DNA of 64,000 nucleotides, from sequence record NZ_CP072388.1; one strand, written 5' to 3'. The first letter of the stretch is position 1; each line of letters begins with the position of its first letter. The notes under the pieces were generated by a model, which saw only the letters and a list, made by a program, of their open reading frames with translations, was not told the origin of the DNA and did no database searches. Made by a program: the position numbers and the translations under genes. The stretch comes from a plasmid. Of this stretch, positions 9,964-64,000 are shown piece by piece.

Positions 9964-9986
9964 GACCACCCGAGGACCACCCCACC

Positions 9987-10868: not shown

Positions 10869-10888
10869 CCACCCACCAGGAGCCGACG

Positions 10889-11644: not shown

Positions 11645-11656
11645 ACGTCGATCTAT
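11641..11656. promoter_or_regulatory. third copy of palindrome ATAGA-N6-TCTAT
   Basis: ATAGACGTCGATCTAT overlaps the stop codon of the 10889 regulator and lies upstream of the 11666 ORF. Confidence 0.3.
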
Positions 11657-11665
11657 CATGATGGG

Positions 11666-12079: not shown

Positions 12080-12093
12080 GAGGCTGCCCGGCT

Positions 12094-13005: not shown

Positions 13006-13024
13006 CGGGGCACGCCCCGCCCGG

Positions 13025-13381: not shown

Positions 13382-13403
13382 CCATCGAGGATAGCCGTCC
13401 GCG

Positions 13404-13844
13404 TCAGGCGGCCGGGGTGGGCGCGACCGGCGTGACGCCGAGCTCGCCCAGCAGGGTCAAGACACGGCCGCGGATCTCGTCGCGAATGGGGCGCACAGAC
13501 TCGATGCCCTGCCCTGCCGGGTCGGCGAGCTCCCAGTCCTCGTAGCGCTTGCCGGGGAAGATCGGGCAGGCGTCGCCGCAGCCCATGGTGATGACGACGT
13601 CGGACGCCTGGACGGCCTCGGTGGTGAGGACCTTGGGCTGCTCGGCGCGGATGTCGATGCCCTCTTCGAGCATGGCCTCGACGGCGACGGGGTTGATCTG
13701 GTCCGCCGGGGCCGAGCCGGCGGAGCGGACCTCGACGGCGCCGCCGGACAGTGCGCGAAGGTAGCCGGCGGCCATCTGGGATCGGCCGGCGTTGTGGACG
13801 CAGACGAACAGGGCTGACGGCTTCGCGGTGGTGGTGTCGGTCAT
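13404..13844 (-). CDS. arsC: arsenate reductase, LMW-PTP family (thioredoxin-coupled)
   Basis: AGGAGAA RBS. P-loop ALFVCVHNAGRSQMAAG. Downstream Cys pair ITMGCGDACP. Confidence 0.85.
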   Translation of the reverse strand: MTDTTTAKPSALFVCVHNAGRSQMAAGYLRALSGGAVEVRSAGSAPADQINPVAVEAMLEEGIDIRAEQPKVLTTEAVQASDVVITMGCGDACPIFPGKRYEDWELADPAGQGIESVRPIRDEIRGRVLTLLGELGVTPVAPTPAA

Positions 13845-20426: not shown

Positions 20427-22955
20427 TCAGCCGTCTGGGTCCGAGCTCGCACGTTCCGCCCTGATGGCTGAGGGCGGCCCCGTAGGCGAGAGCTGGGCGA
20501 CCTCCTGCCTACGGGTTCGCAGGTGCCTGAGACTCTCTTCCAGGGCCGCAACCTCTCCGAGCCAGACTCGCTCGCGCGCCTCTCGCAGCCGGGCTTCGGC
20601 GTTCACGGTCATCTCGTCGAGGCGGCCGGCCTGTGCGGGGTCGACCTTGAGGAAGCGGCATCGGGTGCAGGCGTGCTCGTGCACGCACGGGGTGCCGTAC
20701 GGGCGGCGGCAGTCGCCGAGGGCGACCTTGCGCAGCAGGAAGTGTTGCTCGAACTCGTTCCACTCGTCGGGGGTGGCCGTGCGCAGCTCTTCCTCGGGGC
20801 GGGTGTGCCGGCGTCGCTCGACGAAGGCGTGGTGGGCCTGGATGACGTGCTCGGGGAAGACGGCTGTGTAGCCGCGGGTCGTGTCGAGGTTCAGATGCCC
20901 CAGGAGCGTGGAGACGATGTGCAGCGGGAGGCCTGCGCCGACGAGGTCGGTGGCGAACAGGCGTCTGAAGTCGTGCGGAGTGAACCGTACGGGGGTCTCG
21001 CCGTCGTGGATCCCTGCTCGGTCGGCGACCTGGTGCAGGAGCGTGCGCACGTACTGGGCGGAGAGCACGCTCTGCCGGGAGCCGATCCTGCGGGCGAACA
21101 GGTGGGGGAGCGGGTCGCTGAACACCTTCTCGTTCGGGTCGTACCGGACCGACAGGGGGACGCTCGGGCTGCCGCCGCGTGCGCGGCGTTGGACCTCGAC
21201 AAGGACCTTGACCAGGTCGGGGCTCATCGGGACGAGGCGTTCGGCGTCGGTCTTCGACGGGACGATGTGCAGCAGCGGCACGATGGTGTTGGTGGTCGGC
21301 GCGACGTAGTGCCGCAGGGACAGCTGCGTGAGCTCGAGGAGCTCTTCGATCCGCACTCCCGTCTCGCGCAACGACTCGACCACGGCCCATGCCCAGAAGC
21401 TGTCGGCCTCCAGGCGAGAGATGCACACCAGGCCGCGTTGCGCCGGTGGGATGCGGGCGTGCTCGGCGATCTCGACGATCCGGGCCCAGACCTGGTTGCG
21501 CGCAGCTCGGTTCGAGTGGAGGGGCGGGTCGTGGCGTTCGTAGGTGATGCCATCGACGGTGAACCGCTCGCCGTGACCGGCCGTGACGGCTGCGGCCAGC
21601 AGCCGGCTCCCGTCCTCTCGTAGCGCGTGGGCGGCGGCGGTGAACCGTGGAAGGTGCGGGGTGAGTGTCCGGGTACGTGCTTGCATGCGCGAGCGTCGTT
21701 GACGGTTGGCCTTCGACGCGCTCCGGGACTCGTGTCGTGGGACGGGGCAGGGCGCGACCCAGTAGGCCCAGCGTTCGGGCTCCTCGTGGGACCACTCGGC
21801 CAGGTCGCGGTAGAGCGCGCGTACCGAGAAGAACACCGACGCCACGTCGCGACGCGGGTGTCCGTCAAGAGTCGTGGCGAGCCGCTCACGCCACCGAACA
21901 GCGACCGCCGGAGCCAGACGCAAGTCGGCCTGATCCGGATTCAGGGCGAGGACCTGTCCCCAGAAGAGGCGCACCAGCCGATACGACAGGCCTTCCAACG
22001 ACCCGTAGTCCAGGCTCGCGCGCAGCTCGCCGAGGTAGTCGACCAGCAGGTCCAGAACCCCTGAGTGCGGGAGGCCGTACCGGGCGACGAGGGTCTGGAC
22101 GGAGTGCTGGCGAGAGTTCCCGGCTGCCGCCCAGGCGGCCCGTAGCGTCGGCGGTTCACCGGCGAGGGGCCCCAGCGCGACCAGGAGCTCCCAGGCCAGG
22201 TGCTCCTTGTTGTGCCGCTGGGAGGTACGCACGACGTCGGCGTAGGCGAGCAGATCGTCGCCCGTGAGCCGTCCCAGGCGCTTGCCGGTGCGGATCAGGA
22301 CTCGCGCCAGGCAGGTCTCGGCGTTGCGGCGCGCGAGCTCGGGCGCGTGCTCATAGGCGGACAGTGCCCGTAGCCGGACCATGGCGTCGGGTTCGGCGGT
22401 GTCGAGGAACCGGGCTGACGGGGCGCGCCGGTAGTGCGCGGCTCGCAGCAGCCAGGAGTAGGAGGGCCGCACCGTGCGCGCCTCGATGAGCGACATCACG
22501 GCGATCGAGACGAGCTTCCTGTGCACGCCGGTCTGGAGAGCGACGGCATCGATGCCGCCGTTCGGTGCGGCGTCCAAGCCGCTGGAGATCCACCGTTCCT
22601 CCCACGTCGATCCCGGGTGCTGGGCGAGCCAGGTCAGCACCCTGCGTACGGCACGGTCGCGGGCACGCTGAGCTTTCGGGAGCGGCTGTGAACGGCCGGA
22701 CAGGTAGGACTCGACCCAGGTGCAGGTTGCCTCCACATCGAGGGTCTGCACGTGCGCGAGCTCGTGGTCGGGCTCTCGCAGTGGCGGCAGTAGGGCGGTG
22801 TCGTAGGCGGGCCGACCGCGCGTCCTGCCGTCCTTGGAGTGCATCGGGTCCGGTGCAACGGCCGCACGAAGGACCCGGGTGCGCCGTCTCGTCTCGGCTG
22901 CCTGTGCGCGCGAGGGCAACCTCGGGTCGAGCGCCACCTCGCCGGTGCCGCTCAC
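20427..22955 (-). CDS. large tyrosine recombinase (Tn554 TnpB-like)
   Basis: C-terminal catalytic region R...HDFRRLFAT...LLGHLNLDTTRGYT (R-H-R-Y). 842 aa. GTG start overlaps the upstream recombinase stop (GTGA). Confidence 0.85.
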   Translation of the reverse strand: MSGTGEVALDPRLPSRAQAAETRRRTRVLRAAVAPDPMHSKDGRTRGRPAYDTALLPPLREPDHELAHVQTLDVEATCTWVESYLSGRSQPLPKAQRARDRAVRRVLTWLAQHPGSTWEERWISSGLDAAPNGGIDAVALQTGVHRKLVSIAVMSLIEARTVRPSYSWLLRAAHYRRAPSARFLDTAEPDAMVRLRALSAYEHAPELARRNAETCLARVLIRTGKRLGRLTGDDLLAYADVVRTSQRHNKEHLAWELLVALGPLAGEPPTLRAAWAAAGNSRQHSVQTLVARYGLPHSGVLDLLVDYLGELRASLDYGSLEGLSYRLVRLFWGQVLALNPDQADLRLAPAVAVRWRERLATTLDGHPRRDVASVFFSVRALYRDLAEWSHEEPERWAYWVAPCPVPRHESRSASKANRQRRSRMQARTRTLTPHLPRFTAAAHALREDGSRLLAAAVTAGHGERFTVDGITYERHDPPLHSNRAARNQVWARIVEIAEHARIPPAQRGLVCISRLEADSFWAWAVVESLRETGVRIEELLELTQLSLRHYVAPTTNTIVPLLHIVPSKTDAERLVPMSPDLVKVLVEVQRRARGGSPSVPLSVRYDPNEKVFSDPLPHLFARRIGSRQSVLSAQYVRTLLHQVADRAGIHDGETPVRFTPHDFRRLFATDLVGAGLPLHIVSTLLGHLNLDTTRGYTAVFPEHVIQAHHAFVERRRHTRPEEELRTATPDEWNEFEQHFLLRKVALGDCRRPYGTPCVHEHACTRCRFLKVDPAQAGRLDEMTVNAEARLREARERVWLGEVAALEESLRHLRTRRQEVAQLSPTGPPSAIRAERASSDPDG

Positions 22956-24151
22956 GGTGTCCAGCCGAGCAGCTCACGCACGGCCGCCGCGTCGTAGTCG
23001 GGCTCGACAGCAGCAGGTGGCGGCTTGGGGCGGGAGAAGTGCTCGAGCACCTTGGCCAACACGTCCTCCATCCGGGGCTGGGTGTAAATCGTCGTGGTGA
23101 AGATGTTCACGTGGCGAAGGACCGTCTGGACGTCGACCAAGGTGAATGCCGGGTCGGCCAGCAGGCGCTCGGCGGCCGTGTGCCGCAGGTCGTGCAGCGT
23201 CCAGTTCGATCCGATCCCGCGTTGCGCGCGCGAGAACATGGCCCGAGCCGCGTGGTAGGTCAGTGGTCTGAGTGCCGCCCCGGTGCGCGTCCACCAGACC
23301 CGATCGCCGGGTGCCGCCGGCTGACCTTCGCGCATGTACAGCGCCAGCCACACGAACGCGTCCGGGCTCGCCGGGACGCGTTCTGGCGCGCGGCTTCCCT
23401 TGGTGACGACGGTGATCGTGTGCTCCCCGAAGTCGTAATCTCCGTGCCGCAGCTCCAGCAGCTCGGTTGCCCGCACGCCGCTGGAGAGCCAGAACGACAG
23501 CAGCGCTCGGTCACGGTGACACGTCAGCGCGTCGAAGATCTGGTCGACGTACTCGTCAGGGATGCCGCGCCAGCCGATCCTGGGTACCCGCTGGCGGTAC
23601 GGCGCCCGGGCATGCCGGCGAAATTCACGCATCGGGTCCTGGTGGGCGTTGACGCGGCCCCTGCCGGAACGCTGGGCGGGGACAGGGTTCACCAGCGGAC
23701 CCAGATCCGCGGCGAGCGCAAAGTCGTAGAACCCGGCCAGCACCGAAAGTTGGTGGTTGATCGTGCGCGGAGCAAAGCCTGTCGCGGGACTCGCCCTGCC
23801 GGTAACCATGTTGATCTCGGCGCCACGCTCTCCGCGTCGTAACGCGGTCGCCGTCGGTGCCGCCCGTAAGTACTCCACGAAGGCGCGCACGTCGACACGC
23901 TCAGCACGCTCCCACGCCACGAGCCGCTGGTGGAGGAACCGGAACCACCGGAGCAAGTCGTAGGCGTAGCTGCGGACCGTCGCGGGACTGCAGTCCGACG
24001 CAGACAGATCACGCAGGTACAAGGAGGCTGCTGCGTGCTCGAGATCGGGGAACACGACCCGGAACGGCAGGCCGGAGTCGCACTCCACGACCCGGCCCAC
24101 GGCGCCCGTCACGCGCGACAGCGTCCCATGACGCACACCGCACGTCACCAC
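22952..24151 (-). CDS. tyrosine recombinase (Tn554 TnpA-like / XerD-like)
   Basis: N-terminal SAM-like core-binding region. Catalytic HDLRHTAAERLL...LRHVNIFTTTIYT. Confidence 0.85.
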   Translation of the reverse strand: MVTCGVRHGTLSRVTGAVGRVVECDSGLPFRVVFPDLEHAAASLYLRDLSASDCSPATVRSYAYDLLRWFRFLHQRLVAWERAERVDVRAFVEYLRAAPTATALRRGERGAEINMVTGRASPATGFAPRTINHQLSVLAGFYDFALAADLGPLVNPVPAQRSGRGRVNAHQDPMREFRRHARAPYRQRVPRIGWRGIPDEYVDQIFDALTCHRDRALLSFWLSSGVRATELLELRHGDYDFGEHTITVVTKGSRAPERVPASPDAFVWLALYMREGQPAAPGDRVWWTRTGAALRPLTYHAARAMFSRAQRGIGSNWTLHDLRHTAAERLLADPAFTLVDVQTVLRHVNIFTTTIYTQPRMEDVLAKVLEHFSRPKPPPAAVEPDYDAAAVRELLGWTP

Positions 24152-24184: not shown

Positions 24185-25063
24185 GTGCTCGTGCGCGACG
24201 ACGCGGGCGTGAGCCTGTGGTCGCGGCGTGGCACCGACCTGACGGCGACGTTCCCGGAGATCGCGGCCGCGGCCGCGGAGCAGGTCGCGCCGGGGGCCGT
24301 GCTCGACGGTGAGCTCGTGGTCTGGACCGGGGGCCGGCTCGACTTCGAGGTCTTGCAGGAGCGGATGGGCCGCGGCGCGCGCAGCGCGGCCGCGCACGCC
24401 CGGCGCCGGCCCGCGTCGTTCGCGCTGTTCGACGTCCTCGCCGTCGACGGGCGCGACGTGCGCGGGCGGCCGCTGCGCGAGCGGCGCGCGCTGCTCGAGG
24501 AGGCCGCGACGTCGTGGCGCCCGCCGCTGAACCTGTCCCCGGTGACCGGCGACGTCGACGAGGCGCGCGAGTGGTTCGAGACGTACACGGTGGCCGGTGT
24601 CGAAGGCTTGGTCGTCAAGGGCGCCGGCGAGGCGTACCGGGGCGGGGAGCGGGCCTGGTTGAAGGTCAAGCACCGGGCCACGCTCGACGTCGTGTGCGCC
24701 GCGGTGATCGGCACCATGACCCAGCCGCAACAGGTCGTAGCCGGCCTGCCGATCGACGGCGAGCTGCGCATCGTCGGGCGCACCGGCCCGCTCACGCCGA
24801 CGGCGCGCCGCGCTCTCGCCGTCCACCTGCGACCGCCAGCAGGGGAGCACCCCTGGCCGGCGCAGGTGGCACCGGGTGCGTTCGGCCGGTTCAACGCCGA
24901 CCGCTCCGAACCGGTCACGCTCACGCGGGTCGAGCCGCTCGTCGTCGAGGTCAGCGCCGACGCCGCCTGGTCAGGCCGGTCTTTCCGCCACGCCCTACGT
25001 CTGCTCCGCGCCCGCCCGGACGCCGAGGTCTCCGCCGTGGAACCGCCACGTCGGGGCCAGTGA
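24185..25063 (+). pseudogene. ATP-dependent DNA ligase (LigD-like ligase domain), 5'-truncated
   Basis: Motifs GVEGLVVKGAGEAYRGGERAWLKVK (ligase motifs V/VI). The KxDG adenylation motif is absent. An in-frame stop lies at 24158-24160, immediately upstream. Confidence 0.6.
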
Positions 25064-29647: not shown

Positions 29648-30196
29648 TCAGGCGCCCGTAGCCGTCCTCTGATAGAGGCTCGAGGCAAGGAGGCGCGATC
29701 CGTCTGGAGCAGCAACGACCACGTCCCGCACGTGGACGAAGCCCTCGCGCTCGTAGAAGCCGCGCAGTCCGGGGTTGTGGGCGGCACAGTCCAGACGGAC
29801 CAGCGGCCGGCCCCGTTTCACGGCCTGGTCTCGCGCCCACTGCAGCAGGCGACGGCCCAGACCGGCGCCGCGCCGATGCTGGGCGACCGCAAGCCGGTGC
29901 ACATACACCGCAGGCTCGTCGTCATCGCCCCATGTCTCGCGATCGGATTCGCAGAGCACGATCATCGCAGCAAGCTTCGAACCGTCGCGCACGACGTAGA
30001 GGTCGCCCCTGTCAACGTCGGCCCTGATCACTGCGTCGGGGATGTCGTCCTGCCACTGATCGATCGACCGCGCATCCAGCCACTTTCGCGCGGCGTCGAT
30101 CAGGCCTTGCGCGGCCGCGATGTCGTCGGCGTTTCCCACCTCGACCTGCAGCACTTCGTCCCTCACAGTCTGGAGGCTAGCAACGCGCGCGAGCAT
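29648..30196 (-). CDS. GNAT-family N-acetyltransferase
   Basis: Acetyl-CoA motif VHRLAVAQHRRGAGLGRRLLQWA. Confidence 0.75.
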   Translation of the reverse strand: MLARVASLQTVRDEVLQVEVGNADDIAAAQGLIDAARKWLDARSIDQWQDDIPDAVIRADVDRGDLYVVRDGSKLAAMIVLCESDRETWGDDDEPAVYVHRLAVAQHRRGAGLGRRLLQWARDQAVKRGRPLVRLDCAAHNPGLRGFYEREGFVHVRDVVVAAPDGSRLLASSLYQRTATGA

Positions 30197-30397: not shown

Positions 30398-31408
30398 ATG
30401 GGTGAGTACACCAAGCCATGGCTCTCGCTCGACGACCAGCTAGAGAGGCTTGCGAGCCGTGGGGTCGCCGTCGACCCGCGTGATCGCGCTTCGGCTTGCT
30501 TGAGAGCTGTCGGCTACTACCGGCTCACGGGTTACCTGTACCCATTCCGCTGTTCGGAACAGGTCAAGGACGCGGACGGCAAGGTCCGGACGCGCGTCCT
30601 CAGCGGCTACCGCCCTGACACGTCCATCGCACATATCGCGCGAGTGATCGACTTCGATCGACAGTTGCGCATGCTTGTCATGGACGGCGTCGAGCGCATC
30701 GAAGTCGCCCTGCGCATGCAGGCCGGGTACGTCCTCGGCCGCCGGTCTCCGTTCGCGCATCTCAACCCCGCCACCTTCCTGACCTCGTTCGTCGAGCATC
30801 AGGTGGACGGCGAGACTGGGTGGAAGACGCAGCCGAGCAAGCACGCGCAGTGGTTACAGCGTGTCGCCCAGCGCCGCGCCAGTTCCGACGAGACGTTCGT
30901 CGCCCACTTCCGTGACGAGTACGACGGACAAATGCCGATTTGGGCGCTCACCGAGATTCTTGAGCTTGGTCAGCTCGCAACCCTGTACCGCGGCCTAAAC
31001 GAGGACGACGCTCAGGAGATCGCCGAGGCCTTCGCTGTCCCGACCAAGAAACTGATGGCGAGCTGGCTAGCGAGCCTGAACTATGTACGCAACGTGGCTG
31101 CGCATCACGCGCGCCTCTTCAACCGCAAGCTCCAGAACGCGCCGGCGCGACCGCGATTGGGGCTTGTGCCGCTGCTCGACCATCTGCGCGACGAGGACAC
31201 GCCCAAGGGCGCCTTCGGGGTGTACAACGCGCTGGCCGTGATCGCCTACATGCTGCGATCCGTTGACCGCAGTTCGGACTGGTGTCACCGGCTCGTCGAA
31301 CTGTGTGGCACCTTCCCCTCGTCGCCGGACCTCACGCTTGGGGCGCTGGGCGGCCCGCGAGAATGGACGTCGCTCAACCTGTGGGAACAGACTGGCGAAC
31401 TGCAATGA
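30398..31408 (+). CDS. Abi_2-family (AbiD/AbiF-like) abortive infection protein
   Basis: N-terminal KPWLSLDDQLERLASRGV and GYYRLTGYLYPF motifs characteristic of Abi_2. Locally lower GC. Confidence 0.7.
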   Translation: MGEYTKPWLSLDDQLERLASRGVAVDPRDRASACLRAVGYYRLTGYLYPFRCSEQVKDADGKVRTRVLSGYRPDTSIAHIARVIDFDRQLRMLVMDGVERIEVALRMQAGYVLGRRSPFAHLNPATFLTSFVEHQVDGETGWKTQPSKHAQWLQRVAQRRASSDETFVAHFRDEYDGQMPIWALTEILELGQLATLYRGLNEDDAQEIAEAFAVPTKKLMASWLASLNYVRNVAAHHARLFNRKLQNAPARPRLGLVPLLDHLRDEDTPKGAFGVYNALAVIAYMLRSVDRSSDWCHRLVELCGTFPSSPDLTLGALGGPREWTSLNLWEQTGELQ

Positions 31409-51147: not shown

Positions 51148-51924
51148 ATGACGACGACGACCGCGCTCGGAAACCAGAAGGGCGGTGTCGGGAAGACCAC
51201 GGTGTCGCTGTGTCTGCTGAGCGAGCTCGCTCGTCTCGGCAGGTCATGTCTGCTGATCGACCTCGATCAGCAGATGTCTGCGTCCTCGACCGTGGGCGCG
51301 GAGGGCGACATCACGATCGAGGACGTCCTGCGCGCGAAGGCTCCCGCGCACCTGTCCGATGCGATCGAGAAGTCGCAGTGGGAGGGGATCGACGTCGTTC
51401 CGGGCTCCGACACCATCCAGACCCTTGAACGTGACCCCGACGTCATGGCCGCCTTCCGTCTCCAGAAGGTCCTTCGAGACAACGCCGACCTGCTCTCCAA
51501 GTACGACGACATCATCATCGACCTGCCACCGGATCTGGGGACCTGTACGGTCTCCGGCCTCCTCGCGGCCGACCAGGTCGTCGCCGTGACGATCCCGGAG
51601 CCGTGGAGTTCCGAAGGCCTCGACCGATTCCTCACTACGCTCGAGGGGATCCGCCAGGGGCCTCACCCCTCGTTGACCCTGTTCGGCGTCATCGTGAACA
51701 TGGTCCGCCGCACCAACGAGCACCGGTACCGCATCGCCGAGTTGAACGACTCCGTGGGCGGGCTCGTCATGAACCCGGTGATCCCGCAGCGCGTCGCCGC
51801 GGCGGAGGTCGCAAGCGAGCAGCTGCCGCTGCACGAGCTGAAGAACGAGGGCGCAAAGGTCCTATCAGACCTGTTCGCTGAGCACGCCAGGGCGCTGGCC
51901 GAGGGCCGGAAGGGGAAGAACTGA
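51148..51924 (+). CDS. parA: ParA partition ATPase
   Basis: Deviant Walker A GNQKGGVGKTTVS, GAGAGG RBS. Confidence 0.85.
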   Translation: MTTTTALGNQKGGVGKTTVSLCLLSELARLGRSCLLIDLDQQMSASSTVGAEGDITIEDVLRAKAPAHLSDAIEKSQWEGIDVVPGSDTIQTLERDPDVMAAFRLQKVLRDNADLLSKYDDIIIDLPPDLGTCTVSGLLAADQVVAVTIPEPWSSEGLDRFLTTLEGIRQGPHPSLTLFGVIVNMVRRTNEHRYRIAELNDSVGGLVMNPVIPQRVAAAEVASEQLPLHELKNEGAKVLSDLFAEHARALAEGRKGKN

Positions 51925-52586: not shown

Positions 52587-52599
52587 CCTTTGCGCAGGC

Positions 52600-53030
52600 G
52601 TGTGTGAAGTCATGAATGCATGAAGTCATGAGTACCGCGGTCCCAGCCGCGCCCAGCACCGTTCATGAAAGCATGCATGAATGCATAAACTCGCGAGCCC
52701 ATCGTTGGGCCGGCGTACATCCACCACCCGGACAGTTCATGCATGCCTTCATGAAAGCAGGAACGAATGAATGCATGATCCCGTGACCACTTTGCGTGCG
52801 TCGGTGAAAGTATGAAGTAGTTCACGCATTCATGTACCACTTCATGCATGACTGCATGTGTTGATGAAGCAAGTCATGAAGCCATTCATGTTTACATGCA
52901 TTCATGCATGACGTCATGAACGCATGAATGCATGAACGGTTCTCCTGCGAGCTGTTGGTTCGGGCGACCATGCATGAATGCATGAATGCATGCATGCGTT
53001 CATGCAGTTCACACTGCCTCGCCTGCCTTG
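52600..53030. repeat. ~430-bp AT-rich array of >10 copies of ATGCATGAA / TTCATGCAT in both orientations (candidate centromere/iteron region)
   Basis: e.g. TCATGAATGCATGAAGTCATGA, CATGAACGCATGAATGCATGAA, CCATGCATGAATGCATGAATGCATGCATGCGTTCATGC. GC far below flanks. Confidence 0.6.
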
Positions 53031-55267: not shown

Positions 55268-55510
55268 TTACCCGCGGTGCTTCTCAACGTTGCGATACAG
55301 GTCGAGCAGTTCCTGCACGTCGCGTTCCTCCGCGCGCCGACGAACGTCCGGACCAGACACCCGGAACGCACACCAAGCGATCACGGCGACGTAGACGAAC
55401 AAGCCCGCCACGAGCACGAGCCACTCACCGCTGTCACCGACGACCTCGTCCATGCGCTCGACCGTACCGCCCCCCTCACCCAGCTCACCGACGACCCAGG
55501 GAAGAGACAA
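55268..55510 (-). CDS. small membrane hypothetical protein
   Basis: One TM (LVLVAGLFVYVAVIAWCAF). Confidence 0.3.
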   Translation of the reverse strand: MSLPWVVGELGEGGGTVERMDEVVGDSGEWLVLVAGLFVYVAVIAWCAFRVSGPDVRRRAEERDVQELLDLYRNVEKHRG

Positions 55511-55528
55511 GTCGGCGGCCGAGACTCG

Positions 55529-55880
55529 TGGTGGAGCTCGGCAGGGTGCGTGGTGCGCCGGCCGGTGGCCGGCCCGATCTGTGGCCGCTGCGCGGCCCGG
55601 TGCTTTCCCGCGCTGCGCGCGGGGAAGTCGTCCCCTCCTGGCTCTCCATCATCGCCCGCGCGACCCTGCGCGCAACCCGCTCGACTACGTCGCCGGCCCG
55701 TCGCCGAAACTCGTCGCCCGGCGCTCCTTCGTCGCTTCATCCGGGCGACGAGCCCCGTCGTCGGACCGTACCGCGGGTTGCACTCCGGGCCGCTTATGCG
55801 GGCGTTGATTACGGAGCCAGGAGGGGGCGAAAAACGGTCGGGACCACCCGCCACCCGCCACCTGGCAGGAAGGAGCCCCC
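55529..55880 (+). repeat. leader/promoter module A, copy 1 (diverged)
   Basis: Shares GCCGCTGCGCGGCC..CCCGCGCTGCGCGCGGGG..TCGTCCCCTCCTGGCTCTCCATCATCG..CGCGCGACCCTGCGCGCAACC...GATTACGGAGCCAGGAGGGGGCGAAAAACGGTCGGGACCACC with copies at 57144 and 61244. Ends at the start codon of the DUF4192 gene. Confidence 0.6.
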
Positions 55881-56915
55881 GTGGCTCACCAGCCCGCACT
55901 CCGCGCCCGCACCGTCGCCGACGTGCTCGCCTACATCCCCGCGTGCATCGGGTACACCCCGACCGAGAGCATGGTCGTCGTCGCCCGCCGGTCGAGCACC
56001 GGCACCGTCGGCCTGGTCGCTCGCGCGGACCTGTCCGACGTCACGCCCGAGACGGCCGACATGCTCGCCGTGCACGTCGCCAACGACCGCGCCGCGTCCG
56101 CGATCATCGCCCTGTACACCGAGGACCGCGAGCAGGCCGACCGCACCCTCGCGGGCATGACCGAGGCCCTGCACGGCCAGGCCGTCGACGTGTACGACGC
56201 CGTGCAGGTCAGCGCCGACGGGTACGTCGACCTCCACGCGCCGCACCCGGTCGTGCGCCCGCTGTCGGACGTGACCTCGAGCGTGCTCGCCGCCGAACTG
56301 GTCGCCTCCGGCGTCGCCCCGGCGCGTGACCGCGCCGGGCTGCTGCCCGGCGCGGCCGACGAGGCCGCCCAGGACCTCGCCCGCAGTGCGGCCGCCAAGC
56401 ACGCCGCCAAGACGCGCGACGAGCAGACCACCCACGCGCTCGCCACGTGGCGACTCGCGCTCAGCGGCCTGGTCGACGGCCCCGCGATCTACGGCGAACT
56501 CGCGCAGATGCTCACGCACATCAAGGTCCGTGACGCCGCCCTGCTGACCGCCGTCCCCGACGTCGACCCGGACACCGTGACCCAGGTTGTCACCGGGCAG
56601 AACCCGGACGACGACGCCGTGGGCCGCGCGATCGCCGCGATGGTGGACCCGAAGGTCGGCGTCCAGCCCGGTGAGGCCGCCGACGCCGCGCGCGATCTGC
56701 TCGCGCAGATCATCGCGCACGTGCCCACCAGCGCCGCCGCGTGGACGCTGTGGGGCTTCCTCACGTGGTGGACCGGGCAGAACGGCATCGCGGGCGACGC
56801 CATCGACCGCGCGCTCAGCGTCGACGACGGCTATCGCCTGGCCCTGATGCTGCGGGCCGTGCTTCGGGCGGGCCTGCCGCCCGCATGGGTCGTGCGCGAG
56901 CGCGACGCGCAGTGA
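55881..56915 (+). CDS. DUF4192-family protein
   Basis: N-terminal VLAYIPACIGYTPTESMVVV matches the DUF4192 start region. Confidence 0.65.
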   Translation: MAHQPALRARTVADVLAYIPACIGYTPTESMVVVARRSSTGTVGLVARADLSDVTPETADMLAVHVANDRAASAIIALYTEDREQADRTLAGMTEALHGQAVDVYDAVQVSADGYVDLHAPHPVVRPLSDVTSSVLAAELVASGVAPARDRAGLLPGAADEAAQDLARSAAAKHAAKTRDEQTTHALATWRLALSGLVDGPAIYGELAQMLTHIKVRDAALLTAVPDVDPDTVTQVVTGQNPDDDAVGRAIAAMVDPKVGVQPGEAADAARDLLAQIIAHVPTSAAAWTLWGFLTWWTGQNGIAGDAIDRALSVDDGYRLALMLRAVLRAGLPPAWVVRERDAQ

Positions 56916-56924
56916 CACCCGGCG

Positions 56925-57045
56925 CGCGGCCCGTGGGACAGCCCCGCGGGCCGCGCGCCCTCCGCGCGGGGTGCTGCCCGTACCGGCCCATCGAGGGCCG
57001 GCACGAGCACCGGGGAGCTGCCGCCCCCCGGACCCCCGCCTCATC
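56925..57045 (+). terminator. module B copy 1: tandem hairpins
   Basis: CCGCGCG-ccctc-CGCGCGG and GCCGGCCC-atcga-GGGCCGGC. A copy lies at 58910. Confidence 0.45.
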
Positions 57046-57143
57046 CCGACGCGCGTCCCAGCAGACCGCACCGAACCAGCCACCAGCGCCAGGCCGGGGA
57101 GCGGCCCGTGGCCGATGGGGGAGTGCCGGTAGCGGGTGCGCCT

Positions 57144-57495
57144 GGTGGAGCTCGGCCAGGTGCGTGGTGCGCCGGCCGGTGGCCGCCCCGATTCGGTGGC
57201 CGCTGCGCGGCCTGGTGTTCTCCCGCGCTGCGCGCGGGGGAGTCGTCCCCTCCTGGCTCTCCATCATCGACCGCGCGACCCTGCGCGCAACCGACCTCGC
57301 TGCGCGTCCCGGCCCGGCGAAACTCGGCGGCCTGCGGTCGCTGCGCTCCCTGAGCTCGGCCGGCGAGCCCCGCCGTTCCGGGACCGGTCGGTTGCGCTCT
57401 GGGCCGCTTGTGCGGTCGGTGATTACGGAGCCAGGAGGGGGCGAAAAAACGGTCGGGACCACCGGCCACCCACCTGCTGGCGGGAAGGGGCACCC
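57144..57495 (+). repeat. leader/promoter module A, copy 2
   Basis: Near-identical to copy 3 over ~300 bp. Ends at the ATG of the ParB-domain gene. Confidence 0.6.
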
Positions 57496-58902
57496 ATGAC
57501 CACCGACACCACGGCCACTCAGGCCGAGACGACCACCACCGCCGACGGCGCGGAGTTCGCCCACGTCGACCCGCGCACCCTGGTTGTCGGCGTGAACGTG
57601 CGCGCCGACGCCGACCTCACGCCCGCGTTCGTCGGCTCGATCAAGCAGCACGGAGTCCTGCAGCCCGTGCGCGTGCGCCGCGACGACGACGGCACGCTCG
57701 TCGTCCTGCACGGCCAGCGCCGCACCCTGGGCGCGATCGAGGCGGGCCAGGCGACGATCCCCGCGTACATCGTGACCAGCAGCGGCGAGGGCGCGCAGCG
57801 CATCGTGGAGCAGTTGGCCGAGAACGACCATCGCGAGGACATGCGCGACAGCCACCGCACCGCCGCCTACCGTCAGCTCTCGCTCGAGTTTGGGCTGAGC
57901 GCGGCGCAGATCGCCAAGCGCACCGGCACGAAGAAGGCCGTCGTCCAGGCCACGCTCACCGTGGCCGAGTCCCAGGTCGCCGCCGCCGTGCAGGCCAAGT
58001 ACGACCTGCCGCTGGATGTGGCCGCCGCCCTGGCGGAGTTCGACGACGACACTGAGACCGTCAAGAACCTGACCGCCGTCGCGGTCAAGGAGCCTGGCCG
58101 CTTCGCCCACGAGGCTCAGCGCGCGCGTGACGAGCGCCAGCGCGCCGCCGAGGTCGCCGCCGCCCGCGAGACCCTGACCGCACAGAACGTGACCGAGGTC
58201 GAGCGCCCCGACTACAACGACGCCAAGGTCCAGCACCTGGCTCGACTCAAGCCCACCAACGACGACCCGAACGGCACCGACCTGACCCCCGAGGCGCACG
58301 CCGAGTGCCCCGGTCACGCGGCGTACATCGCCGCGCAGTGGAACCGCGTCGAGATCGTCTACGTCTGCACGAACTGGCGCACCCACGGCCACGCCGACCG
58401 CTACGGCACCACCAGCACCCAGCGCACCGGACCGATGAGCGAGGCCGAGAAGGCCGAGCGCAAGCAGGTCATCGAGAACAACAAGGCGTGGAAGTCCGCC
58501 GAGACCGTGCGCCGGACCTGGCTCGCGGAGTTCGCCCAGCGCAAGACCGCCCCCAAGGGCGCCGCCGAGTACATCGCCCACGCGATCGCCACCGAAACCC
58601 ACACCCTGCGACGCGCAGGAGAGCGCGGACACACACTGGCCAGCGAATGGCTCGGCATCAAGACCGAGACCAGCCCGTACCCGACCGGACGCGGCCTGGC
58701 CGACCTCATCGCCAAGGCCACCCCCAGCCGCGCCCAGCACATCGCGCTCGTCCTCGCCCTCGCCGCACGCGAGGCCGAGACCGGCGTGCAGACCTGGCGC
58801 CGCGAAGGCGCCGAACAGACCTACCTCAGCGCACTCGAAACCTGGGGCTACACCCTCAGCGACGTCGAGCAGATCGCCCGAGGCCAGGCGCCCACCGAGT
58901 AG
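57496..58902 (+). CDS. ParB/Sulfiredoxin-domain (ParB-like nuclease) protein
   Basis: N-terminal ParB N-domain VVGVNVRADADL...IKQHGVLQPVRVRRDDDGTLVVLHGQRRTLGA. Confidence 0.75.
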   Translation: MTTDTTATQAETTTTADGAEFAHVDPRTLVVGVNVRADADLTPAFVGSIKQHGVLQPVRVRRDDDGTLVVLHGQRRTLGAIEAGQATIPAYIVTSSGEGAQRIVEQLAENDHREDMRDSHRTAAYRQLSLEFGLSAAQIAKRTGTKKAVVQATLTVAESQVAAAVQAKYDLPLDVAAALAEFDDDTETVKNLTAVAVKEPGRFAHEAQRARDERQRAAEVAAARETLTAQNVTEVERPDYNDAKVQHLARLKPTNDDPNGTDLTPEAHAECPGHAAYIAAQWNRVEIVYVCTNWRTHGHADRYGTTSTQRTGPMSEAEKAERKQVIENNKAWKSAETVRRTWLAEFAQRKTAPKGAAEYIAHAIATETHTLRRAGERGHTLASEWLGIKTETSPYPTGRGLADLIAKATPSRAQHIALVLALAAREAETGVQTWRREGAEQTYLSALETWGYTLSDVEQIARGQAPTE

Positions 58903-58909
58903 CACCCAG

Positions 58910-59028
58910 CGCGGTCCGTGGGACAGACCCGCGGGCCGCGCACCCGGGTGCGCGCGCTGCCTGCGCCGGCCCATCGAGGGCCGGCGCAGACACCGGGGAG
59001 CTGCCGCCCCCCGAACCCCCGCCTCGGC
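58910..59028 (+). terminator. module B copy 2: tandem hairpins
   Basis: GCGCGCAC-ccgg-GTGCGCGC and GCCGGCCC-atcga-GGGCCGGC. Confidence 0.45.
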
Positions 59029-59192
59029 ATGAGTACCGGATCAGAAGAACGCCACCGTGGCCGACGGTCGAGATTTCAACGAGGAACTTCCGAGCCTACG
59101 TGCGGCTGCCGTGATGACCAGGTGCGATTGGCCTCGAGGTGGCCGGATTCCGCGCTTTCATCGTCTGGGTCGGTTGCATAGAACCCGAACGC

Positions 59193-60542
59193 TCATGGCG
59201 ACGAGAGGGTCGCGACTCGCCAGTTGAGGCTATTTGCGACTTCGTAGACGGAGGCTGCGAATCCGTACGGGCTGCATCCGCGGCCGTTCGGCTGCGCAGC
59301 AGGGACCCCGTTGCAGTTGTCCAGGACCCACTCCTCGTCTTCGAACCAGTAGATCCCCGAGATGACGCCCAGAGCGCGTGGTCGGAAGCCCGCGTCGACG
59401 GAAACCAAGTCGAACACGGGGCCACCGCTGTCTCCGCTGCCCCACAGCGGTTCGCCGAGTTGGTTGACGATACGAGCGACCTTTGCGCTGGTGATGTCGG
59501 TGTCCTCATACTCGACGAAATAGTCGGTTTCGACGACCTGCCCACCGCAGGTCATGCCGGAGTACGATCCCGAGCTGCAGACCTCTTGTCCGAGAAGATA
59601 GCCAGTGGAGACTGCCTCCACGCCGACGTACTGGGTGCTCGTGTACTCGCCGATGTACATGTAGGGGTTCGACCAGTCCTGCGTCAGGACGGCGCCGTCG
59701 AGGCTTGTGAGCCGGTGCGTCATGTTGCCGTAGTGGTAGGCCATGAGGCCGCCTTCAGACATGGCGGTACGGACCCATTGGGAGTTGATCGGACCGCAGT
59801 GGGCGGCGGTGACCATCCCGTAGTCGCCGGTGACCTTGTGTCGGGTGGCGAAAGCGGTGCTGCAGTTGCCACGGAGGTAGCCGTCCTGGAACCGGCTTAT
59901 CCGGGCGCCGCCCAAGTGCAGGTTGTCGGACAGTCGGGCGGGGTTGTTCTGGACGTTCTCGTTGACGCGCACCGGCACGCCGGCGATCTCGCTCAGCTCG
60001 TTGGCTACTTCGTCGCGATCGGGGCTCGCGCTGCGGCGTGCACCGGTTGACGTGCTCTGGTCAAGGTCCACATAGACGCCAGAGGCGTCGGCGTTGACGC
60101 CCGCGCCGGCGACCTTTGCACCGCCCACCTCGGTGCCGGGAAGACTTGCCGCGGCCCGGCGGAGGTCTCCAGGGAGGTACGGGGCGGCAGTAACCGCCAA
60201 GTTCTCCGACGGCGTCAGGTCAGCTGGGACGTCCCCGTACCACGCGACAGACAGGTGGGACCGGTCGTCCGAGATGGCGAGCGTGCCGAGGCGGTCGTCG
60301 GAGCCGTAGCGCTTCCTGATCTCGTCGGCCTTGGCGGCCACAACCTCGGGAATGGCGGGCGTGTGAAGGTGCTGCGCCAGGTCAGACGGGTCGAGGACTG
60401 ACCGTTGATCGACGGGGCCCTGTACATCGGGCTCAGGCGGCGGGACGGGCGAGTTCGTCGCGTGTGCAGCGATCCCCCCGCACAGAGAGAGCGAGACGGC
60501 GGCGACGAGCGCATAGCTGCCGCGTTGCAGCCTGGACTTCAT
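59193..60542 (-). CDS. secreted S1-family (chymotrypsin/streptogrisin-like) serine protease with pro-region
   Basis: Signal peptide. TAAHCG (His) and GDSGGPV (Ser) motifs. Low GC. Confidence 0.8.
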   Translation of the reverse strand: MKSRLQRGSYALVAAVSLSLCGGIAAHATNSPVPPPEPDVQGPVDQRSVLDPSDLAQHLHTPAIPEVVAAKADEIRKRYGSDDRLGTLAISDDRSHLSVAWYGDVPADLTPSENLAVTAAPYLPGDLRRAAASLPGTEVGGAKVAGAGVNADASGVYVDLDQSTSTGARRSASPDRDEVANELSEIAGVPVRVNENVQNNPARLSDNLHLGGARISRFQDGYLRGNCSTAFATRHKVTGDYGMVTAAHCGPINSQWVRTAMSEGGLMAYHYGNMTHRLTSLDGAVLTQDWSNPYMYIGEYTSTQYVGVEAVSTGYLLGQEVCSSGSYSGMTCGGQVVETDYFVEYEDTDITSAKVARIVNQLGEPLWGSGDSGGPVFDLVSVDAGFRPRALGVISGIYWFEDEEWVLDNCNGVPAAQPNGRGCSPYGFAASVYEVANSLNWRVATLSSP

Positions 60543-60550
60543 GTTTCCCC

Positions 60551-61003
60551 CTACGTTGTCGTATGCGGTACCGCTTTGCCATTAACGAGAACCTCGACAG
60601 CGTCGTCGACGGAATTCTCGACCGGGATCTCCACAACGTGACTAAAAGGAACGCTATCCGCGGTGCAGCTCATGTTGTTGCTGCGCGCCATCTCGAGAGC
60701 GAGAGTTGTCGATCCTTGCCAAGCGATCCCCACCGGGATCGCTGGGCAGCTGGAACTACCCCAGGACGTGACCGTGAGCGTCGGCGGCTCGGCGGTCGGG
60801 TCGATGACTACATTCGACTGCCCCTCCGGCGGTGGCCTGAGCGTCGAGTCCTCGGTGGGAAACGAGTCGACAGCGATCGAGACAGCGGGCACGCCAGTCC
60901 TGGATGCGGGAGGCGGGTCACTAGAGGGCGCCGCACAGCCGGTGATGACGCCAACGACGAGCAACCCAGTGAAAAGCACCGGCACGTAGGCGGCTCGCCT
61001 CAT
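60551..61003 (-). CDS. lipoprotein, co-transcribed upstream of the protease
   Basis: Lipobox VITGCA. 9-nt gap to the protease start. Confidence 0.5.
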   Translation of the reverse strand: MRRAAYVPVLFTGLLVVGVITGCAAPSSDPPPASRTGVPAVSIAVDSFPTEDSTLRPPPEGQSNVVIDPTAEPPTLTVTSWGSSSCPAIPVGIAWQGSTTLALEMARSNNMSCTADSVPFSHVVEIPVENSVDDAVEVLVNGKAVPHTTT

Positions 61004-61243
61004 TGACTATCCCCCAAAGTCAAGGTGGTGGAAGGAGAGTGCCATAAGTTCGGATGGTCGACAAGGGTCGGGCGCGCGGTCCGTGCTCGGCCGCGAACGA
61101 GTAAGGGGCACGTTGAGCGTCTGAGCGTGGCGAGACTCAGCCGCGTCGCTCGCCGAAGATCAGGGTGCTCGAGGGCGCGTTCTTGCGCGGTGCAGGGGCA
61201 CGGCAGATCCCTGCGCCTTGAGGCCCGCTGCGCGGGCTGTTCG

Positions 61244-61539
61244 TGCCGCTGCGCGGCCCGGTGTTGTCCCGCGCTGCGCGCGGGGGAGTCGTCCCCTCCT
61301 GGCTCTCCATCATCGACCGCGCGACCCTGCGCGCAACCGACCTCGCTGCGCGTCCCGGCCCGGCGAAACTCGGCGGCCTGCGGTCGCTGCGCTCCCTGAG
61401 CTCGGCCGGCGAGCCCCGCCGTTCCGGGACCGGTCGGTTGCGCTCTGGGCCGCTTGTGCGGTCGGTGATTACGGAGCCAGGAGGGGGCGAAAAACGGTCG
61501 GGACCACCGGCCACCCACCTGCTGGCGGGAAGGGTCACC
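61244..61539 (+). repeat. leader/promoter module A, copy 3
   Basis: See copies 1 and 2. Ends at ATG 61540. Confidence 0.6.
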
Positions 61540-61929
61540 ATGACCACCAACTCCGCGCACGTCTTCGGTGAGCCGATCCACGTCTACACCCGCGCCCGGG
61601 CCCTGGCCGACGGCGTCCTGGTCGACGCCGGGCCGCTGGCCGGTGAGGCAGGGTTCCGCTGGCCCGTCGCGCTCACCCAGGCGGCTCACGCCGAGGCTGT
61701 CACCTGGAACCCCGAGCACGGCCCCGGGCAGGACGAGACCGGCCGACTGTGGGACGTGCTCTGGCTCGCCACCATCGCGGCCCGCGCGGGCCGCTCCCGG
61801 TTTACCGTGGCCCGCGTCCCCAATCTCCCGGGCCAGGACGAGGCCCAGGGCCTCGACCTCGTGCTCCACGTCGGCCCCGGCGACACGGGCGAACCGGTCG
61901 TGACGATCAGCCTCCCCGGCGAGGACTGA
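61540..61929 (+). CDS. hypothetical protein (mobile-element associated)
   Basis: 129-aa ORF preceded by module A and GGGAAGGG. Confidence 0.5.
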   Translation: MTTNSAHVFGEPIHVYTRARALADGVLVDAGPLAGEAGFRWPVALTQAAHAEAVTWNPEHGPGQDETGRLWDVLWLATIAARAGRSRFTVARVPNLPGQDEAQGLDLVLHVGPGDTGEPVVTISLPGED

Positions 61930-62337: not shown

Positions 62338-62487
62338 ACCACCAGCGGGCCGGGCGCAAGAACGCCCGGCCCGCCCCTCACCTGAGGTATACATACAGAT
62401 GCGCTAGATGTATACTTGAGGTGTTGGAAGGGCACGCAACGGCCGGAGACCACCGGCCACCCGGCACCAACGCAAAGGAGGGCCCTC

Positions 62488-62769
62488 GTGGCTCAGCACA
62501 CCATCGCCGCCCAGGACGCGAGCCGCGCGTCGTTCGAGGCCAGCATCGAGGCCGCCAAGCGCCACGCGCGGGAGACCGGCGAGGACCTGTACGACGTGCT
62601 GGATCGGATGGACCGCAACGACGCGAGCGTCGTCCCGGCGATCCACCCCCTGATCAGCGCCGACAAGGCCCACCTGGCCCAGCGCATGCGCGGCGCCCTG
62701 TGGATCGATCCGACCGGACGCCGCACCTACACCCCGCCCGCGCGCACCCTGGGCGAGCTGCTCGCCTGA
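62488..62769 (+). CDS. hypothetical protein
   Basis: AAGGAGG RBS 6 nt before GTG. Preceded by an AT-rich palindrome. Confidence 0.5.
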   Translation: MAQHTIAAQDASRASFEASIEAAKRHARETGEDLYDVLDRMDRNDASVVPAIHPLISADKAHLAQRMRGALWIDPTGRRTYTPPARTLGELLA

Positions 62770-63859: not shown

Positions 63860-64000
63860 ATGACCACCGCCACCGCACCCCGAACCCGTAGGCTCACCCG
63901 TGCACGCCGCGCCGCCGTGGGGGACTTGCCGCCCCCCACACCCCCCGCCTCCGGCGCGGCTCACCACCGCCTGCAACCCCGAGGTGCCCTTCCCATGACC
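63860..64000 (+). CDS. hypothetical protein, 3'-truncated by window end
   Basis: ATG ORF running off the window. Confidence 0.3.
   Translation, partial: MTTATAPRTRRLTRARRAAVGDLPPPTPPASGAAHHRLQPRGALPMT

Follow-up and report, generated by a model that had tools for sequence, protein, structure and literature searches.

A repeated, covarying hairpin in front of genes of actinobacterial conjugative plasmids is a candidate single-stranded DNA promoter

Within the leading region of plasmid F a 328-nucleotide (nt) segment, Frpo, folds as single-stranded DNA (ssDNA) into a stem-loop which offers -35 and -10 boxes to the host RNA polymerase (PMC7690428, PMC9849209). This allows leading genes to be expressed early and transiently and possibly supplies a primer for the complementary strand (PMC7690428, PMC9849209). 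F carries two Frpo copies that are 92% identical, ColIb-P9 carries three (PMC9849209, PMC6294495). A study from 2025 described three mutually non-homologous classes of ssDNA promoters in IncI1 and IncF plasmids and confirmed the starts by 5' rapid amplification of cDNA ends (5' RACE; PMC12672017). Such promoters have been shown for enterobacterial IncF and IncI plasmids only, and large-scale searches relied on similarity to enterobacterial sequences (PMC11541004, PMC12672017). In the Gram-positive plasmid p576 establishment genes are under repressor control (PMC6294495). Our literature search found no report of an ssDNA promoter in Actinobacteria. Here we examined a stretch of 64,000 nt from a plasmid (NZ_CP072388.1; henceforth the window), actinobacterial DNA with a GC content of 70.6%. 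A search assigned it to the 133-kb contig JBJXVU010000012.1 (assembly GCA_046159675.1). It contains three copies of an intergenic element, module A, each in front of a gene. We propose, with a probability of roughly 0.55, that module A is a Frpo-like class of ssDNA promoters, non-homologous to Frpo and the first proposed for Actinobacteria. The computational basis consists of repetition, conservation, covariation in a long hairpin, position-specific strand features, the geometry of two hexamers and gene context. From these we infer the identity of the transferred strand (T-strand), recognition by RNA polymerase, the start sites and transient expression.

A sequence-only reading of the window had pointed out three leader modules, and these were confirmed on the plus strand: A1 at 55529-55880, A2 at 57143-57495 and A3 at about 61239-61539. 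Each copy stops 0-4 nt before a start codon, i.e. at 55881 (a DUF4192 gene), 57496 (a gene with ParB_N and HTH_ParB domains) and 61540 (a DUF6573 gene). In alignments A2 and A3 were 99% identical over 250 nt and A1 was about 83% identical, with the differences mainly in the center. This agreed with the earlier description, and all conserved blocks named there were found. A1 was marked by the direct-repeat families D4, D5 and D11 as well as by alignment and nhmmer (E = 4e-76). Module A is more than a leader, as its core turned out to be an imperfect hairpin of 208-215 nt which had been overlooked. Its long-range pairing is evident from CCCCTCCTGGCTC on the 5' side, which is the reverse complement of GCCAGGAGGGG on the 3' side. 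The hairpin cores are located at 55632-55827, 57247-57441 and 61293-61487, and on both strands they scored z values of about -7 relative to dinucleotide shuffles; the A1 hairpin, assigned to the minus strand as the predicted transferred strand, folded with z = -6.7 and was supported by covariation.

Is the hairpin a conserved structure? Its length was kept at 208-215 nt in 22 of 22 copies despite a diverged center, and the single-strand folds of module A copies had z values of -5.5 to -10.8 compared with shuffles. A plus strand alignment of 20 copies submitted to RNAalifold yielded 57 pairs, 27 of them changed on both sides. Covariation, which the sequence-only reading had proposed to test, was assessed by column shuffling on a minus strand alignment of 22 copies restricted to the hairpin; 31 of 55 pairs showed compensatory changes. 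Paired cells amounted to 95.4%, compared with 80.7% after column shuffles and about 40% when partners were slid by 1-3 columns, although cell counts overstate the number of independent events because the copies are related and evolve in concert within plasmids. None of 500 shuffles equaled the observed covariation measures. The stems exist as distinct 'alleles', for example GCAACCGACC/GGTCGGTTGC, GCAAGGCCCG/CGGGCCTTGC and ACAACCCGTT/ACGGGTTGT. No Rfam family matched, neither at gathering thresholds in the whole window nor in a sensitive scan of 55450-57520, where a single, spurious match below threshold was a plant miRNA precursor. This was in line with the earlier impression that no annotated family fits.

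Module A is not a local duplication. Iterative nhmmer searches retrieved 23 copies in nine replicons of four named genera, i.e. the window, Cellulosimicrobium cellulans pTL2A, plasmids of Paraoerskovia sediminicola and Xylanimonas allomyrinae, two Isoptericola contigs, C. cellulans NBRC 15516, C. marinum and one metagenome-assembled genome. Further copies were in at least 8 metagenomic contigs, which brings the total to more than 25. The pattern GYCMGGAGRGKGCGRAAAA used for the metagenomes was too degenerate and hit at least 119 stretches; profile filtering left the real copies in those contigs. PLSDB plasmids contained three carriers only, and a similarity search against phages gave no module A match. 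All copies were co-oriented with the downstream gene and abutted it. These genes were orthologues of the DUF4192, ParB_N and DUF6573 genes, a few small open reading frames (ORFs) and the first gene of an ArdC-like operon. The most divergent variant (TTGCGT-16-CAGAAT, with a leader of about 100 nt) was found directly upstream of ssb (PF00436, E = 2e-21) in the metagenomic contigs L062 (4071-4807) and L067. The central hairpin segments are discrete 'alleles' which are shuffled relative to the downstream gene. The A1 center matched the copy before an 84-amino-acid (aa) gene in C. cellulans NBRC 15516, and the A2 and A3 centers matched copies that precede ParB or DUF6573 genes elsewhere. Copies from the same plasmid were often near-identical and more alike than orthologous copies. 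Together, the shuffled alleles and the near-identity within plasmids indicated recombination or gene conversion between modules.

A repeated imperfect palindrome with such a history may also be a selfish or neutral repeat, similar to miniature inverted-repeat transposable elements, enterobacterial repetitive intergenic consensus or repetitive extragenic palindromic sequences, or an ssDNA recombination site like the attC of integrons which has spread between genes. The similarity of copies from one plasmid and the shuffled centers, implying recombination, are compatible with this, and attC sites too fold from one strand with extrahelical bases. Yet the orientation was constant, the element was always fused to a leader, a ribosome-binding site (RBS) and a start codon, copies were confined to the predicted leading regions of conjugative elements, and neither target-site duplications nor terminal repeats were observed. 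An attC has 57-141 nt, carries R''/R' boxes (RYYYAAC/GTTRRRY) at the stem base, lies 3' of cassettes and has intI and attI adjacent. Module A with about 210 nt exceeds this range; its GCGCAAC/GTTGCGC does not conform to the R box pattern and is in mid-stem rather than at the base; it lies 5' of genes and comes with an RBS; no intI is adjacent and the tyrosine recombinases of the window are more than 30 kb away. We consider a selfish repeat or an attC-like site highly improbable.

Covariation alone cannot separate RNA from ssDNA. A structured 5' untranslated region (UTR) of a plus strand mRNA, such as a riboregulator, an RNase III site, a stabilizer or an antitermination element transcribed from an upstream duplex promoter, would also produce it, and a structured 5' UTR or small RNA was one of two interpretations offered earlier. 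A2 and A3 folded slightly better on the plus strand with DNA parameters, and a few plus strand U·G pairs exist (columns 72/246 and 89/229). The Paraoerskovia copies have T·T in column 72/246; hence the 'U·G' there is a conserved mismatch and not a pair. Position-specific wobbles and loops pointed to the minus strand. The shuffle-corrected z was better on the minus strand in 11 of 12 copies. A strand-neutral structure was then derived in which G·U pairs were forbidden; within this stem, read on the plus strand, A·C accounted for 11 of the non-Watson-Crick cells and G·T for 1. On the minus strand recurrent G·T wobbles alternate with G·C or A·T by one-sided changes. An example is GGG·TTT in columns 87-89/139-141, which as mRNA would be three consecutive A·C mismatches. 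Mini-hairpins with a C:G-closed G-N-A triloop occurred 64 times on the minus and 3 times on the plus strand, with a ratio of about 1.5:1 expected from composition. They occupy about five positions per module, N varies (GCA, GAA, GTA) and the stems covary. DNA mini-hairpins with G-N-A triloops are reportedly of unusual stability. The most divergent copies retained the minus strand TTG and had lost the TTG of the plus strand 3' arm (GGTATGCG). As an internal control we used hairpin 1 of module B, a second repeated module located behind two of the genes. In eight Cellulosimicrobium-type copies it had the opposite, i.e. plus strand, preference; this held for 8 of 8 with DNA parameters and for 7 of 8 with RNA parameters, where the difference ranged from -0.5 to +12.7 kcal/mol. 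Five copies from Isoptericola and Paraoerskovia had little or no strand preference. The wobbles, the G-N-A triloops and the spacing of the hexamers described below place the structure of module A on the strand antisense to the genes.

The sequence upstream of the long hairpin also bears on a 5' UTR. Module A1 starts with small GC hairpins (55555-55623) at 55555-55574, 55583-55597 and 55607-55623, whose minus strand loops are GCA (C-GNA-G triloops). The second, GGCCGC-TGC-GCGGCC, is invariant. The third, CCCGCGC-TGC-GCGCGGG, is followed by a T-run in most relatives and is terminator-like; the sequence next to this hairpin b is TTTTCTT in most relatives and is absent from the copies of the window. 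In most copies the stem base directly adjoins a terminator-like hairpin with a T-run, so that no space is left for an upstream promoter there, and a sigma-70 scan detected no promoter-like site upstream of the hairpin. Further, no Rfam family applies, and homology of the leader, presented below, indicates that transcription begins at the 3' base of the stem. The structure is real, as covariation demonstrated, but its features fit the antisense strand. Therefore, a structured 5' UTR or small RNA appears quite unlikely. An antisense RNA was rejected as well; the minus strand hairpin is not followed by a terminator and no promoter was seen.

On the minus strand, the arm 3' of the loop displays TTGnnn, exactly 16 nt, and (G/C)AnnAT in every copy examined. 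The second hexamer occurs as GATGAT, GATCAT, GAGGAT and CAGAAT, and variants of the first include TTGTGA, TTGCAC, TTGAAC, TTGCGT and TTGTGC. The arrangement persisted even in a copy with replaced stem base and leader. In A1 the -35-like hexamer TTGCGC is at 55670-55675, exactly 16 nt upstream on the minus strand arm of the -10-like hexamer GATGAT at 55648-55653 (ATCATC on the plus strand). The corresponding plus strand complements are at 57285-57290 (-35-like) and 57263-57268 (-10-like) in A2, and at 61331-61336 and 61309-61314 in A3. In all minus strand minimum-energy folds the A at position 2 of the -10-like hexamer (-11), including that of A1, was unpaired and opposed by C, A or an internal loop; the remaining five positions were paired. 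The 3 nt after the hexamer were unpaired as well, opposite a bulge of 3-4 nt in the template arm, and then at least 10 clean base pairs followed. The TTG is paired and its flanking pairs covary. Invariant were the adenines at -11 and -8 and the thymine at -7. The actinobacterial -10 consensus is TAnnnT, and the variable -10-like positions coincide with its 'n' positions. The motif TTG-N19-nAnnAT occurred five times in 128 kb counting both strands, and three of the five were the A copies. On the plus strand arm the spacing was 22-23 nt, and the equivalent hexamers GATTAC, CATTCC and GATAAG lack T at -7.

The predicted starts would be at the 3' base of the hairpin, at about 55816 (55813-55819) on the plus strand for A1 and at about 57430 and 61476 for A2 and A3. 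For A1 two approaches agreed. The first is the +1 deduced from the -10-like hexamer in the hairpin. The second, independent of it, is a comparison with the gene at 62488, which encodes 93 aa of unknown function. Its upstream region on the plus strand (62388-62490) consists of a conventional AT-rich, palindromic promoter/operator and a leader; the promoter, TATACA-17-TATACT at 62388-62416, is the sole promoter-like site in 7.6 kb scanned. This site is inside the palindrome GTATACAT...ATGTATAC, which is probably an operator. The leader of the gene (62429-62490) is homologous to the 3' tail of A1 (55822-55883; score 57 compared with 20.7 ± 4.3 for shuffles). Its predicted start is at about 62423 and the homology begins 6 nt later; the equivalent position in A1 is about 55816. 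This homology indicated that one leader module is combined either with a duplex promoter-operator or with a hairpin. With the start at the 3' base, the hairpin itself would lie outside of the mRNA. The A1 leader (55822-55880) consists of an A-tract (55828-55837), the conserved core TCGGGACCACCCGCCACCC and the RBS GGAAGG (55868-55873); the RBSs of A2 and A3 are at 57483-57488 and 61528-61533.

The 62488 gene clearly uses a palindromic operator-promoter, and this raises the question whether module A is a duplex regulatory module with operators for a repressor of the element, either the ParB/KorB-like or a helix-turn-helix protein, and zygotic induction by dilution as with KorB of RK2 or Reg576 of p576 (PMC6294495). 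A KorB-like operator was the other interpretation of the sequence-only reading. Indeed, a 15-bp near-palindrome inside module A, GGCCGCTGCGCGGCC, is invariant in nearly all copies and does not covary. The adjacent protein, as suggested earlier, is a genuine relative of the ParB/KorB fold; its matches in the PDB are ParB, Spo0J, Noc and KorB. Yet GGCCGCTGCGCGGCC was confined to A copies and occurred nowhere else in the window or in related loci. About 55 covarying base pairs over 200 nt, a constant hairpin length and conserved mismatches are not explained by an operator, and no duplex promoter that might be controlled was detected in A. We regard a purely duplex module as improbable. Control by a repressor and operator could be an added layer over module A, judging from the sequence. 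The broader idea of co-regulated cassettes held insofar as an upstream control module and a downstream terminator-like module are shared across genera; neither of the two specific interpretations attached to it was supported.

Carriers of module A are type IV conjugative plasmids. The window encodes T4CP, VirB4-like and SCO6880-family genes. In three fully sequenced relatives the cassette genes share a strand; they are situated between parA and a relaxase (MobF, or MobC plus relaxase), towards which they point; ArdC-like, SSB, NrdH, toprim and Fic/VbhA genes lie between the cassettes and the relaxase. According to a general rule, the relaxase enters last (PMC11541004). If this applies, the transferred strand is the template of the cassette genes in the three relatives. 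The layout is the same in F, where ssb, a ParB-family gene and psiB of the leading region point at oriT and the tra operon.

The same evidence for strand and structure would apply to a site, comparable to ssi or sso, where the minus strand hairpin mainly primes complementary-strand synthesis by RNA polymerase, DnaG or a plasmid toprim or Prim-Pol primase, and where it is of secondary importance that genes follow. The initial description of Frpo was that of a promoter for primer RNA (PMC7690428). Toprim-domain proteins are encoded in the same region of related plasmids and the window encodes a Prim-Pol and wHTH protein. Very stable G-N-A mini-hairpins are described as a feature of ssDNA origins. 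However, every copy lies at a fixed short distance from a start codon, has a conserved leader with RBS and precedes one of certain gene families, none of which is needed for priming. Since both roles are proposed for Frpo, a priming site is compatible with the promoter model, and it is the closest rival; as the main role of module A we consider it unlikely.

How might an ssDNA promoter operate here? The minus strand, the predicted transferred strand and template of the genes, would enter the recipient as ssDNA and its inverted repeat of about 210 nt would fold. The arm 3' of the loop, with TTGnnn-16 nt-(G/C)AnnAT, would then supply the non-template strand of a pseudo-duplex promoter in which the -11 A is already unpaired, an internal loop covers -6 to -4 and the clean stem of at least 10 bp serves as downstream duplex. 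Host RNA polymerase would start at about 55816, 57430 and 61476 and run off the stem base onto the single-stranded template. The products would be mRNAs with a leader of about 65 nt and the RBS GGAAGG for the DUF4192, ParB-like and DUF6573 proteins. Possibly the RNA also acts as a primer of the complementary strand, a role that has been proposed for Frpo. With the synthesis of that strand the hairpin would be lost and the genes would be silent, because the duplex has no usable -10 element or correct spacing. The net effect would be a burst of expression upon entry.

Several points weigh against an ssDNA promoter. Raw fold energies favored the minus strand in 20 of 20 copies with RNA and in 18 of 20 with DNA parameters, yet this, like the shuffle-corrected z above, is weak evidence, and the raw asymmetry is largely background, since the coding windows of plus strand genes likewise favored the minus strand (-5.6 ± 4.6 kcal/mol) and A2 and A3 of the window lacked the asymmetry with DNA parameters (+3.4). 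The hexamers are weak; G or C replaces T at -12, only TTG is left of the -35 box and they fail a simple sigma-70 scan, which detected no duplex promoter in any A copy or upstream. The same scan detected nothing in the validated Frpo regions of F. Because those regions fail too, the scan cannot decide and weak hexamers are not disqualifying. The very GC-rich stems may be hard for the polymerase to open, and A may contain a duplex promoter of a type beyond the range of the scanner. The relaxase and oriT of this element were not found in the window or the next 9.3 kb, searched for relaxases with Pfam and by tblastn with the relaxases and MobC of the three relatives. The assignment of leading region and T-strand therefore rests on the synteny with three relatives and the relaxase-last rule. 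The overstated cell counts mentioned above belong here as well.

The three genes were characterized by Pfam and PDB searches. The DUF4192 gene (55881-56915, plus strand, 344 aa) matched PF13830 (E = 2e-32), the gene at 57496-58902 (plus strand, 468 aa) matched ParB_N and HTH_ParB, and the DUF6573 gene (61540-61929, plus strand, 129 aa) matched PF20213 (E = 1e-20). The PDB search with the DUF4192 and DUF6573 proteins gave no match.

The first two genes are followed by module B, as had been noticed before: B1 at 56916-57042 and B2 at 58903-59025 on the plus strand, 84% identical. Instead of two stem-loops there are three and a C-rich tail. In B1 hairpins 1, 2 and 3 are at 56921-56959, 56971-57010 and 57012-57029, with the tail extending to 57042; in B2 they are at 58909-58941, 58954-58993 and 58995-59012, with the tail at 59014-59025. 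The apex GGCCC-ATCGA-GGGCC of hairpin 2 is identical in both copies (56985-56999 and 58968-58982), as reported. The first hairpin of the sequence-only reading (CCGCGCG/CGCGCGG versus GCGCAC/GTGCGC) had to be replaced; it is a small alternative pairing that shares sequence with the 3' arm of a larger hairpin of 17 bp. In a cross-genus alignment hairpin 1 was variable, had up to 17 bp and began 5-8 nt past the stop codon. It is not followed by a U-tract; the GC-rich hairpin itself is terminator-like. The apex of hairpin 2 was invariant across genera (the window and 11 relatives) and its lower stem covaried, which suggests sequence-specific recognition of the loop by some factor. A Cellulomonas counterpart kept an xTCGA loop. 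Hairpin 3 reads GGGGrsc-wTGCC-GCCCCC and precedes the C-rich tail GGACCCCCGCC. Hairpins 2 and 3 mostly had a minus strand preference. A partial B-like element with hairpin 3 and tail is at 63919-63951 (plus strand) downstream of a DUF3560 gene and has a counterpart in the Paraoerskovia plasmid. We read module B as a terminator-like insulator. It would separate the cassettes, with hairpin 1 acting like an mRNA terminator and hairpins 2 and 3 as conserved signals which fit the minus strand better.

Are there further hairpin classes? About 3.2 kb beyond the end of the window on the same contig (L133, 14345-14585) we observed a fourth, more divergent long hairpin (z = -5.8), about 225 nt in length. 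Its base carries a T/A-tract, its antisense arm contains TTGCGC, and a glutaredoxin (NrdH-like) gene is directly downstream. The module A profile did not detect this hairpin. The plasmid p110066 of Cellulomonas sp. C5510 is without module A and has its own intergenic module (8700-13571) in four copies before genes for ParB, a hypothetical protein, ArdC and another protein. It contains a hairpin of about 130 nt with seven conserved antisense-strand G·T wobbles and the apex GC-GCA-GC, and is accompanied by a B-like hairpin GCGC-GTCGA-GCGC followed by CCCCGGACCCCGG. Possibly this module and module A are two classes of one device. Pseudonocardia sp. KRD291 has an intergenic module of about 150 nt in two copies 2.4 kb apart (263-415 and 2702-2856) which contains CCCGAACCCCCGCC. 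The latter resembles the C-rich tail of module B, so that by sequence an analogous cassette organization may exist beyond Micrococcales. A Pseudonocardia element upstream of ParB had no significant hairpin (z = -0.9). A sliding-window hairpin scan with a 'nested pairs' criterion was too noisy for use. Tentatively, and with somewhat less than even odds, we suggest that actinobacterial leading regions are series of ssDNA-only cassettes with structurally distinct, phylum-specific hairpin promoters characterized by a pre-unpaired -11 A, a pre-opened discriminator and G-N-A punctuation, with at least two non-homologous hairpin classes, module A and that of p110066. If true, each cassette would be closed by a conserved three-hairpin insulator and its promoter would be silent as a duplex.

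What would follow from an ssDNA promoter in module A? Through ssDNA promoters anti-defense and establishment genes are expressed within the first minutes after entry. Module A would provide the first ones outside of Proteobacteria, and the mechanism would reach high-GC Gram-positives. DUF4192, the ParB_N protein and DUF6573, which are widespread and of unknown function, would be the earliest-expressed establishment or anti-defense genes. As a sequence tag, module A could help to locate early genes and leading regions of actinobacterial plasmids and of integrative and conjugative elements, for which oriT is mostly unknown. It would be a natural 'pre-melted' sigma A promoter for polymerase biochemistry, and an independent sequence family with a covariation-supported structure and precise predictions for hexamers, the -11 adenine and starts.

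Three other regions of the window are described here. Just downstream of parA (51148-51924) and a 203-aa ORF, an array with 8-bp periodicity (CATGAAnn / ATGCATGA) covers 52591-53011 at a lower GC of 0.61; it looks like a partition centromere or replication iterons. Between B2 and A3 an insertion of lower GC (59060-61160; 0.64-0.66) carries two minus strand genes. The N-terminus encoded by the ORF at 59193-60542 resembles a signal peptide, and the protein contains the motifs TAAHC and GDSGGP of S1 serine proteases, with no Pfam match at E < 0.01; the ORF at 60551-61003 encodes a small protein of unknown function. In pTL2A just a 77-aa ORF is in place of the insertion. Finally, two adjacent minus strand tyrosine recombinases and genes with an ATP-dependent DNA ligase domain, a GNAT acetyltransferase and Abi_2 for abortive infection (20427-24151, 24185-25063, 29648-30196 and 30398-31408) have metabolic cargo (sulfate permease, RNase J, flavin oxidoreductases) on one side and the type IV secretion system block on the other. 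This region may be an element boundary or a defense islet.

How does module A compare with known systems? With attC it shares imperfect hairpins of one strand with conserved unpaired bases which punctuate co-oriented gene cassettes; a length of 57-141 nt, a position 3' of promoterless cassettes, R-boxes at the stem base and intI/attI nearby are properties of attC and not of module A. KorB-OB of RK2 and Reg576 of p576 (PMC6294495) are likewise repeated cis elements before several operons of conjugative plasmids, coordinate an expression that is transient on entry and have a ParB-family protein alongside. Their sites are repressor-bound duplex operators of 13-14 bp at ordinary promoters, whereas module A is a covarying 210-nt hairpin with no detectable duplex promoter. 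The sso elements (ssoA, ssoU and sti of Streptomyces pIJ101) are strand-specific ssDNA hairpins of Gram-positives, actinomycetes included, at which the host RNA polymerase generates primer RNA. They have been compared with Frpo (PMC7690428). In contrast to module A, an sso is present in one copy per plasmid, lacks the fusion to leader, RBS and gene, gives rise to a short primer rather than an mRNA and belongs to rolling-circle plasmids instead of a type IV conjugative element. The ssDNA promoters of classes 2 and 3 in pESBL and F are non-homologous large stem-loops upstream of leading-region operons, with starts that match predictions (PMC12672017). Their hosts are enterobacteria, and RNA-seq and 5' RACE have validated them (PMC12672017); module A would add a further class of this kind.

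In architecture module A resembles Frpo, i.e. Frpo/ssi class 1. Both are imperfect hairpins of about 200-330 nt in two or three copies, co-oriented upstream of genes (ssb, ParB-family, anti-defense) of a leading region, which for module A is a predicted one. In both the stem base is about 55-60 nt from the start codon (about 60 nt to the ssb ATG in Frpo2 of F and about 53 nt in module A) and the antisense strand, by prediction the T-strand in module A, folds better; when we folded Frpo2 of F in the same way, a hairpin of about 295 nt was obtained that was more stable on the T-strand (z -6.3 compared with -4.9). Both have -35/-10-like boxes on one arm, those of module A being predicted and non-canonical, and no recognizable duplex promoter. 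They differ in that module A is GC-rich (about 74%) and Frpo contains AT, in the lack of an A+T-rich UP-like segment beside the -35 hexamer of module A, in TTGnnn/(G/C)AnnAT as opposed to near-consensus sigma-70 boxes, in the Actinomycetota host and in the side hairpins with G-N-A triloops. Comparison of module A with the leading region of F and Frpo1 of ColIb-P9 gave a best blastn E value of 0.17, i.e. noise, and nothing with nhmmer; the Frpo/ssi sequence family is delimited by a BLAST E < 1e-6 (PMC11541004). Because sequence similarity to the Frpo of F and ColIb-P9 is absent, module A stands outside this family and would be a new class. Its divergent variant directly upstream of ssb occupies the same place as Frpo2 in F.

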